A stretch of 64,000 bases of DNA. Source: Podarcis gaigeae (lineage: Eukaryota). The position numbers and the translations under genes are program-made. Under the pieces are notes generated by a model. It saw only the letters and a list, made by a program, of their open reading frames with translations. It did not search any database and was not told the origin of the DNA. Location: the NCBI GenBank assembly GCA_964106915.2, contig OZ066915.1; one strand, given 5' to 3'. Shown here in pieces: positions 12,101 through 15,100 of this stretch; within the stretch, counting starts at the first letter, position 1; each line of letters begins with the position of its first letter.

Positions 12101-15100
12101 GATTTATTTATTTTTAATAGCATCTGTCCTGATTCAGATGCTCAATTTCTGGCTTTCTGAACCTTAGTTCAGTAGCCTCTCCCTGTGATTCTTCCCATTC
12201 TTGGTACTTACATCCTGGTTTAATTAAATAACTGTTGTAGTTTAACATATGTTTCCTAACCAGGACCTCAAACCTACTTCAGCCTAAAATGGTCATAGGT
12301 ATGTATAGTTTATTTTTACGTCACAAACTTGCAAAATACAGAACTCTGCTCACAAGCTGTGGTGGAATAAGAGGCTATGCCCTCTTCTGAATGTCCAAGC
12401 AACTGTGCAGAATGCTCTACAGATGAAAGGTGGGTTGGCGGGGAAATTGAAAGAGGGAGACCCCAAGAAAGAAAGAGAGCTGAAACAACAAATGAGCTCC
12501 TCTAGATTAGCTATGTGTAGTGTCTGCCAAATCTTTCAGGAAGCAGCTTTTATAAGCAGAACTAAGTTTTCCAAACTCCCTATATCCATGGTGATCTAGA
12601 GGCTGTTCCCACCAGTGTTTCCTTGAAGGGGCTGGATAGAACTGTATGGAAACAAAACTTTGCCCAAAGCCAAAGTTTTTAACTTTGGCTGTGAAATTGC
12701 TTTTGTGGAAGCTTAAGCTGAAGACCATGGCTGACTTCCAAAGGAGAAGATTTAACAGGATAAAAATGTTGAAGTTAGATTGTTATCTGCTTTCTGCCTC
12801 CCTCCCATGCTGCGCTGCTTGAGATCCTGTTAGCCTTTTTTCCATCAGATTTCTTGAACACTCCCTGTAGAATCATGGCAACTTGGGGGGGGCATGTACT
12901 TGTGTTCTTATTTTGCTTAGGCAAAGCTTCAAGTAGAGTTCAGATGCACCCCCCTCCCCAAGACCAGTGAAAAGTTGAATCTGAACCATTACTGTCAGAG
13001 TGAGGCACTTAACTCTCGTGTGCATGACATGATAAGTTTCAATCTTCGGACTTCTTGGTTCATAGTGCTGTCTCTTAGCCACTGCAGTACATCACCTCAG
13101 CATAATAGAATAGTGAGTAGGATTATTAGTACAGCCTATCGTTTGCTGCCTGGACTGTCTGGACCCAATTAACTTTGATTTTGTTTGCCAATCCACCTTA
13201 TGCTGTGTCACAACCATGCAGCCCCTGGCATACATTTAAAATTGTATTGCATTCTCTCGGAAGGATGTGTCCTTGTAACCAGCGCTCACAAGACCATTTA
13301 ATTTGATGTTGACAGTAGGCTGCTGTGCCACTCTTGTGGCAATCGCTCTTTGAAGCTGTAGCCGCATTGCATATCTGCCTATTCCAGGCATCTAATTTTT
13401 CCTCCTGGAAAGAGATGATGTCCATATGTTTAAAAGTGAACTGGAGGCCAAACCAGGGAGGGTGTAATTTGAGAGGTGATGAAAAGTGTATTTCTTTCAA
13501 AAGAGTAAAAGTGGGATGGGAAGAGAATGGTGAGGAAATACAGTCACAGTACGTAATTACATTCAAAGGCATGGCAGGTGCACTTCCTGCAAAGAATGCA
13601 GGTTCTGCCAAAAGATAACCTTGCTTCCTAAAAAAAGGTGTAGCCAACTGAATCACTGCCCACCCTGAGTGCTGTACAGGTACAAAGAGGGATGGGACTC
13701 AACATCCAACATCTGACAGAAACCCCAGTGATGTAGGGTGGAAAGTTTTCCCTTTATCCTTAAAAATGAGTTGTTTAATAAAATTGCTTGATAACCTAAT
13801 AATACAGCAAAATAAAATTTTCAGGCCACCCAATATGACTTAGTACAATGCTTGTTAAATATGAAATCAGAGTTGCAGTTAAACTTTTTCAGGCAACTAT
13901 CTCTAAGGAGAATATATATTTTATGCACATAGCTCTTCATGTATGTTAGTATGTTAGCAGCCTTCACTCCTTTGTGATGGGACAAGAACTGATTTAGTTT
14001 TAGTTTGAAAACAGCTTGATAATTACCTAGCAGAAAGTCTGCCTTGACTCTTTTCAGCTGAACTTCTTTCTCTGCTTCTAGAGTTTAGCCTTATATTGTT
14101 GCCATGTAGGATTTTCCCTAATACTCTCAGATGTTGAAAAAGCAATAACCAAATGAATTGATTTACAGATAGGTAGCCGTGTTGGTCTGCCATAGTCAAA
14201 ACAAAAAAAATTCCTTCCAGTAGCACCTTAAAGACCAACTAAGTTAGTTCTTGGTATGAGCTTTCGTGTGCATGCACACTTCTTCAGATACCAAGGTTGA
14301 TGGACTTCCATTTCATGCGGCTCAATGTGGTGCCTTCCATAGTTCCAGTTACAGATAGGTAGCCGTGTTGGTCTGCCATAGTCAAAACAAAACAAAAATT
14401 CTTTCCAGTAGCACCTTAAAGACCAACTAAGTTAGTTCTTGGTATGAGCTTTTGTGTGCATGCACACTTCTTCAGATATCTGAAGAAGTGTGCATGCGCA
14501 CGAAAGCTCATACCAAGAACTAACTTAGTTGGTCTTTAAGGTGCTACTGGAACAAATGAATTGATGTAAGCAAGGAGATAGAGGAAGTTAATGTAACTGG
14601 ATATTCCTGTGCAGATTTTTCTGGTGTCTTTGACATTCCCCGCTTGGGATGTGAAGCCTTTGCTCTTCATTGGGAATTGTACCCATACATAGCTTTGCTG
14701 GTTTCCTTTATGTAGCATGCAACCTATTTATCTAATGTCTAAAATGACCCCAGATATTTTTGTTATAGTCGCTGGAAATAGTTTGCATTCCGACCCATGT
14801 ATACTTTGAGCTTTAAATATTAAAAAAATGTGAGTGGTGGTACTTTGGCTACCCTTAAAATCACGGTACTGATGGGGGACCTTGCAGATATTGTTTGATT
14901 CTATCTCCCATTAGTCCCATTAGCCAACATGAGCAGTGATTAGGGGTGATGGAAGCTGTATTCCAGTGACATGGAGGGCCACCGGTTCAACAACATTTGG
15001 GGTTTGCCATATTGGCTACCGAATCAACTTAGCTAATTGAAATGATTGCCTTTTGGGAAGCGGCTAACTTGCAGTTTCTTAAGGTGACAAACTTGAAATT

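Follow-up and report, generated by a model that had tools for sequence, protein, structure and literature searches.

Two published features of Penelope-like elements (PLEs) bear on the locus described here, namely their pattern of insertion and the minimal hammerheads within their pLTRs. These hammerheads are known in turtles and snakes, also as close pairs on opposite strands (PMC4209133), and the canonical hammerheads of retrozymes are distinct from the minimal PLE type (PMC7229834). In the anole, the PLE protein nicks and extends both strands, beginning synthesis at a pair of internal positions that delimit the tail; the RNA it inserts is uncleaved, and it also assists its hammerhead (PMC11167929). 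Self-priming is an alternative model for the origin of inverted copies (PMC3846280).

The 64,000-nucleotide stretch of Podarcis gaigeae DNA analysed here (the window) contains an insertion of 390 bp that carries three hammerhead motifs. We conclude with high confidence that it is a recent, 5′-truncated copy of a high-copy Neptune-type PLE, and that its motifs are passive and are likely not to cut host RNA. The components of the locus are the following.

6055..6130, plus strand: coding exon of the SH3PXD2-family host gene, upstream of the insertion
14150..14162, no strand: left target-site duplication (TSD), 13 bp, an exact direct repeat; empty site in the X17 contig
14163..14552, element sense on the minus strand: whole insertion, 390 bp, interpreted as a 5′-truncated Neptune-type PLE product with an inverted arm and a partial tandem
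14163..14291, minus strand: copy 1, spanning pLTR positions −4 to about +124 (counted from C3), with the 30–40 nt 'tail' end
14250..14295, minus strand: minimal type I hammerhead motif 1, with an intact core at 14287–14258, a 5-bp helix II, a loopless palindromic helix III and an 8-bp helix I
14292..14293, minus strand: two junction bases without parent template, between ORF-derived sequence and the next pLTR start
14294..14348, minus strand: 'spacer', the 55 nt after the tail end in the full-length element, inside the ORF; 100% identical to L099:4704-4650
14294..14382, minus strand: first 29 codons of the PLE ORF, cut at the junction
14349..14477, minus strand: copy 2, the pLTR from −2 on, including hammerhead motif 2
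14475–14446, minus strand: motif 2 (copy 2), with G12>A from C>T at 14453, in a CpG
14478..14552, plus strand: copy 3, the inverted arm, −2 to +72, including hammerhead motif 3; pairs with 14403–14477 as a 75-bp hairpin
14480–14509, plus strand: motif 3 (copy 3), with an intact core, one G•U in helix II and a 3-bp cis helix I
14553..14565, no strand: right TSD, 13 bp, an exact direct repeat; empty site in the X17 contig
19979..20055, plus strand: coding exon of the host gene, downstream of the insertion

An earlier note on this DNA had described a TSD-flanked insertion made of two direct repeats of about 130 bp plus one inverted copy, and this description holds in each part; the 13-bp TSD is exact, and all three copies are present by sequence comparison. 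The site is empty in a DNA contig of a relative (X17, organism E), which joins 13603–14149 directly to 14553–14828 and shows about 31 differences from the window flanks in about 1,890 bases, while X15 contigs run into the element from either flank. Thus the insertion is real and recent. The direct copies 1 and 2 (compared over 14163–14290 and 14349–14478) are 97% identical, and copy 1 differs from the 5′ pLTR of the full-length element L099 by two substitutions and one indel. Copy 2 and the spacer together form a single continuous stretch of the parent that carries the first 29 codons.

The host gene is, by its sequence, a member of the SH3PXD2 family. The best PDB match of its last exon is the SH3 domain of SH3PXD2A (E 1.7e-19). 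A further exon lies upstream in L106, a search of 30 kb upstream did not reveal exon 1, and the three short host exons gave no match to Pfam. The insertion had been assigned to intron 3 of SH3PXD2B. Its intronic position stands, given the flanking plus-strand exons. The paralogue is probably SH3PXD2B and the intron presumably intron 3, with 6055..6130 as exon 3 and 19979..20055 as exon 4, going by the usual exon structure of that gene.

How common is this element in the genome? Exact matches to the core pattern number 13,146 across the 1.51 Gb of the genome, and those to a motif further downstream in the pLTR 15,936, with none for the reversed control of either. A search with a GIY-YIG profile found the repeat at 28 of 30 loci, at 25 of them about 180 nt after the end of the ORF. 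One full-length copy, L099 (G000:C17:77539500-77547500, element at minus 5080-1723), comprises a 5′ pLTR, an ORF of 910 amino acids and a 3′ pLTR. The ORF has matches to RVT_1 (E 9.5e-12) and to a C-terminal GIY-YIG (E 7.8e-6), with a CX4CxxC linker between the RT and the C-terminal endonuclease. That the repeat bounds such an ORF, and accompanies GIY-YIG at nearly all loci found, shows at the level of genomic sequence that the repeat of 129 nt serves as pLTR to a PLE of this genome with RT and GIY-YIG, and bears out the Penelope-like origin proposed earlier. A CX2-5CxxC linker marks elements of the Neptune/Nematis type (10.1101/2021.04.23.441226), and the element is probably Neptune-type by this motif, which Nematis shares. 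The 910-aa frame of L099 is uninterrupted and its pLTRs are 98% identical; it is likely to be close to the source of the young subfamily. A second PLE family, perhaps of Poseidon type, is seen at L070:2353 and 286 and at L078:590, with a different minimal hammerhead, whose helix II has 6 bp and whose palindromic helix III differs in sequence; GIY-YIG is matched in L070 as well. In this one comparison the second family keeps the core with its other helix III.

The three motifs of the insertion have the form CUGAAGA-A-helix II-GAAAGCUC, on the minus strand at 14287–14258 and 14475–14446 and on the plus strand at 14480–14509. Copies 1 and 3 have the features of a minimal type I hammerhead, that is the core, the extra nucleotide before G10.1, the loopless palindromic helix III and a short helix I, and copy 2 fails in the core through G12>A. 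A minimal-hammerhead descriptor matches the window twice, at copies 1 and 3, and has no match in 100 of 100 Markov-1 control windows. The identity as minimal hammerheads is therefore upheld by core, palindromic helix III and descriptor. Inspection likewise agrees with what had been noted of the individual copies: copy 1 has an intact core and an 8-bp helix I, copy 2 has lost G12 by C>T at a CpG, and copy 3 lies on the sense strand of the gene with 3 bp of cis helix I. A search with the Rfam models, as proposed in the earlier note, found no hammerhead model in the window at E≤10, as is expected for a motif without helix III. It gave 17 matches, all to other families and below their gathering scores: 16 were to miRNA-hairpin models and fell on the fold-back, and the remaining one, to an lncRNA model, lay outside it; a miRNA identity was rejected, and the matches reflect generic hairpin similarity.

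The helix I of copy 1 is made of four parent pairs, the two junction bases and two ORF bases, so that the junction supplies four of its eight base pairs. Among 32 copies that were not chosen by their upstream context, cis helix I has 4 bp in 21, fewer in seven, 5–7 bp in three and 8 bp in one. A selected extension of helix I as a family trait was considered and ruled out on these numbers. Of 133 descriptor matches 87 are identical, and no two-sided changes were seen in the helices; the family is too young for covariation to be expected. Together with its loop, helix II forms a perfect 14-nt palindrome, at 14266–14279 and 14454–14467, and a predicted dimer of copy 1 pairs through this palindrome and not through helix III, a possible inactive trap.

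Where would these motifs cut? In a double hammerhead the core of one unit acts on the site of the other. By this topology the core of copy 1 would cut the copy 2 site at 14446/14445, and not 14258/14257. Hence, of the cleavage sites given previously, the nominal C17 positions 14258 and 14509 are right, but 14258/14257 would not be the cut made by the core of copy 1. G12 is essential for hammerhead cleavage, and having lost it the core of copy 2 is unable to cut copy 1.

It had been proposed that catalytic motifs on both strands of the intron could cut the pre-mRNA or antisense RNA. The core of copy 3 is intact on the pre-mRNA strand and the helix I of copy 1 is unusually long, both of which favour an effect of cutting on the gene. 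The folding predictions, all of which are for equilibrium, point the other way. On the pre-mRNA the 75-bp hairpin is predicted with P>0.99, and the helices of copy 3 have a predicted probability of 0.0 in the full RNA and in four co-transcriptional prefixes; freeing copy 3 is predicted to cost 51 kcal/mol (−214.5 compared with −163.6). Copy 3, preceded on the pre-mRNA by its own reverse complement, would thus be trapped in this hairpin. On the antisense RNA helices I and II of copy 1 are predicted to fold, with P about 0.73, but as a monomer the motif has no helix III and depends on a dimer, and enforcing the cis dimer of copies 1 and 2 would cost about 57 kcal/mol. Trans pairing of copy 1 with RNA of another copy in the genome is conceivable, such partners being abundant, and a protein could remodel the RNA, by analogy with the protein-assisted hammerhead of the anole (PMC11167929). 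Published minimal hammerheads showed no activity as monomers and little as dimers or trimers (PMC4209133), and eight of nine Xenopus dimers were without cleavage (10.64898/2026.07.22.740005). The insertion is moreover absent in a close relative, and the core shows no sign of constraint across the family. Cutting of host pre-mRNA or antisense RNA that affects the gene is thus very unlikely. The proposal is poorly supported in view of the predicted folding of copy 3, the cost of the cis dimer and the atypical 8-bp helix I; the presence of motifs on 'both strands' is a by-product of insertion, as the genome has 1,693 sites where two hammerheads lie head to head no more than 30 nt apart.

The fold-back might instead act on the host as a 75-bp double-stranded hairpin, as a substrate for ADAR, a source of small RNA or a modifier of splicing. 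While the near-certain prediction of the hairpin on the pre-mRNA speaks for such a role, fold-backs of this kind number at least 1,693 genome-wide and the nearest exons are about 8 kb and 5.4 kb from the insertion, and we regard it as exceedingly improbable. A single A>G in copy 3 at 14498, within the hairpin on the pre-mRNA strand, is best taken as a point mutation. In the reads examined, read ends do not accumulate at the cut site, a weak test given the fragmented libraries and one that we leave out of the evidence. These raw reads (X21–X24) are from organism A, probably another species (word share up to 0.74) and perhaps one without the insertion. Apart from about one X21 read pair, X23 and X21 have no reads on the unique flanks of the insertion, and the element reads come from other copies.

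Preservation of the core was compared with that of the remaining pLTR in 154 aligned copies, of which 120 cover the core and 102 of these have it intact. Substitutions outside CpG are as frequent in the core (6/1375, 0.44%) as in the rest of the pLTR (47/10325, 0.46%; p=1.0), and those in CpG are similar (15/270, 5.6% and 7/186, 3.8%; p=0.51). This tally leaves out +42, a subfamily site, and the T-tract at +73..+93. No constraint on the core is evident from these rates, with the low power that a divergence of 0.5% affords.

The ends of the copies bear on how they were made. Relative to C3, a TATA-like box of the parent L099 lies at −37 and an Inr-like A at −7, while the cut site falls at +30 and the ORF opens with its ATG at +93. 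In a sample of 32 copies with an intact core start, departure from the parent occurs 4–7 nt upstream of C3 in 16, at 0–3 in five and at 10 in two, and nine continue into the ORF side. Starts placed just before the hammerhead point to an uncleaved template beginning there. Reading this as a transcript start from TATA and Inr-like motifs draws support by analogy from rotifer pLTRs, which have similar motifs (PMC3846280); Drosophila Penelope has a TATA-less internal promoter (PMC2377424). An extra G often precedes the −4 start (four of seven such copies), as a reverse-transcribed cap would give. The pLTR start was also considered as a 3′ splice acceptor with a pyrimidine tract and AG, and rejected; several joins retain the A or G of the AG, which fits a transcript start better.

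Use of the cut site itself seems rare. A purine directly before the cut site gave 83 matches, and two positions used as controls gave 61 and 167. Among 30 loci inspected at the cut site, nine are point changes and 21 are junctions, seven of the latter joined via the 4-nt complement of helix I; at the +34 control 12 of 30 loci are true junctions. A small excess at the cut site is possible (about 58 compared with about 24 by extrapolation, less than 1% of copies). In L111, L114, L125, L126, L132, L133 and L135 the second arm starts exactly at the cut site and is joined to the inverted arm via the helix I complement. In these seven insertions snap-back or microhomology can mimic a 5′ end derived from cleavage, and the helix I complement joins fit self-priming too.

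The arms of the inverted structures end in a regular manner. We parsed 25 head-to-head insertions from 90 loci, merging overlaps, and in all 25 the end of one arm falls at +122..+133 and that of its partner at +61..+95. A query ending at +124 had been used to select the loci of sixteen; the pattern holds in all nine insertions that were not so selected. A clean TSD of 12–17 bp is found in 12 of the 25, and 14 of the 24 ends of these share at least 2 nt with the parent, a count that drops the 13 insertions without a clean TSD and may be inflated by T-rich sequence. There is no such microhomology at the left or the right end of the window's insertion.

The start sites and arm ends, together with the behaviour of the anole PLE protein, favour priming at +124, a template jump, and priming from the second nick at +72. 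The template would have been an uncleaved RNA starting 2–7 nt upstream of the hammerhead core, some 30 nt after the TATA-like box. The enzyme of the element would have made a cut in the target staggered by 13 nt, with priming likely at the usual tail site of +124. Synthesis from there to the 5′ end of the RNA would give copy 1. A jump to a start about 55 nt further into the ORF (about +180), followed by copying to the 5′ end again, would give copy 2, and the junction bases 14292..14293 may mark the template jump, as a cap-derived G or by snap-back. For copy 3, the inverted arm, priming probably took place at the upstream site +72 from the second nick, or else fold-back of the cDNA produced it; we infer the order of synthesis. 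After insertion the copies would have decayed neutrally, with the stable 75-bp hairpin hiding copy 3 on the pre-mRNA. As a tentative generalization, and one that we consider possible rather than probable, a Penelope enzyme may use each of the target nicks as a primer, at different internal sites of an uncut RNA that bears a cap, to yield head-to-head arms of which one has the tail, and may jump from the 5′ end of the RNA to a third site about 55 nt on to make tandems of 175–190 nt without cleavage; a short snap-back of cDNA at such joins could lengthen helix I from 4 to 8 bp, as in copy 1, and some joins would then make better ribozymes and seed true retrozymes. A search of open-licence literature for Penelope with twin priming returned no paper on PLE mechanism by title or start of abstract, and the idea may still have been published.

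The tandem invites another explanation. The 186-nt unit might be a non-autonomous non-LTR retrozyme, whose tandem hammerheads release a monomer that is circularized and copied by rolling circle by the PLE enzyme. Head-to-tail units of 175–190 nt do exist, up to trimers, and reptile units average 176 bp and have been proposed to derive from pLTRs (10.64898/2026.07.22.740005). However, joins of ORF start to pLTR number only 93, set against some 13,000 motifs, and lie at numerous positions, and the exact join of this locus, with its upstream context, occurs once in the genome; arrays also end at the presumed transcript start and tail site, as monomers do. Several join sequences recur at dispersed loci, and five of seven multi-unit loci have one join throughout their units, in some together with private variants; arrays with one join are L019, L013, L008, L023 and L004, of which L019 and L013 also have a private base change. 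Such arrays would be given by rolling-circle copying, but local duplication or microhomology also yields shared joins. RNA reads of a relative (X21 and X22) contain a 193-nt back-joint, L099:4834->4642, supported by 7 reads in one and 12 in the other and alike in type to the tandem join in the window, yet such a joint is indistinguishable in RNA from a genomic tandem. Finally, copy 2 has a mutant core, where two consecutive complete hammerheads are the criterion used for retrozymes (10.64898/2026.07.22.740005). Taken together we consider the retrozyme origin unlikely. The narrower idea of a single master retrozyme was ruled out, since the joins vary and that of this locus is unique. Priming at +124 followed by a template jump is thus the preferred reading of the tandem.

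By itself the locus matters little, as young PLE fragments run into the thousands and the hammerheads of this one probably stay silent in the intron. The value of the family is that of a fossil record, the family being young (about 0.5% divergence outside CpG) and having a full-length partner with an open frame, and its junctions allow a genome-wide test both of the origin of inverted and tandem pLTR structures and of the use of hammerhead cleavage in transposition. The sampled copies favour insertion from uncleaved RNA, and their joins are suggestive of priming at each of the two target nicks together with template jumps. If this is true, the junctions record PLE insertion and the birth of retrozymes.

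Placed beside known systems, the insertion is closest to canonical EN+ PLEs of the Neptune clade. The two share partial tandem pLTRs, an adjacent inverted 5′-truncated copy, a one-sided tail of 30–40 bp and a TSD, as well as a pLTR that extends over the first codons of the ORF with TATA and Inr-like motifs, and a partner ORF with RT, CX2-5CxxC linker and C-terminal GIY-YIG (PMC3846280; 10.1101/2021.04.23.441226). The window copy differs in keeping almost no ORF, so that its tandem is pLTR, 55 nt and pLTR. With the minimal hammerheads of metazoan PLE pLTRs (PMC4209133) the motifs have in common the CUGANGA and GAAA boxes, the extra nucleotide before G10.1, the G10.1–C11.1 pair, palindromic 15.2–16.2 without loop 3 and, in the family, a 4-bp helix I. 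Here helix II has 5 bp and a palindromic loop, in contrast to 7–8 bp in Schistosoma, and the 8-bp helix I of copy 1 is made by the junction.

The Poseidon element PAc of the green anole (PMC11167929) shares internal RT start sites bounding the tail and an uncut hammerhead in genomic copies; that report also records no RNA ends at the cut site, and none accumulate there in the fragmented libraries examined here, a weak test. PAc belongs to another clade, its ORF starts inside the hammerhead whereas the ORF here starts 93 nt after C3, and homology of start site and target, absent there, is seen here as at least 2 nt shared at 14 of 24 ends. Non-LTR retrozymes (PMC7229834; 10.64898/2026.07.22.740005) resemble the tandem in their short non-coding units of similar length, type I hammerheads and kinship with pLTRs. 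The tandem differs from them in that its joins are rare and heterogeneous rather than those of one amplified family, and in carrying a minimal and not a canonical hammerhead with one intact core on the same strand at this locus.
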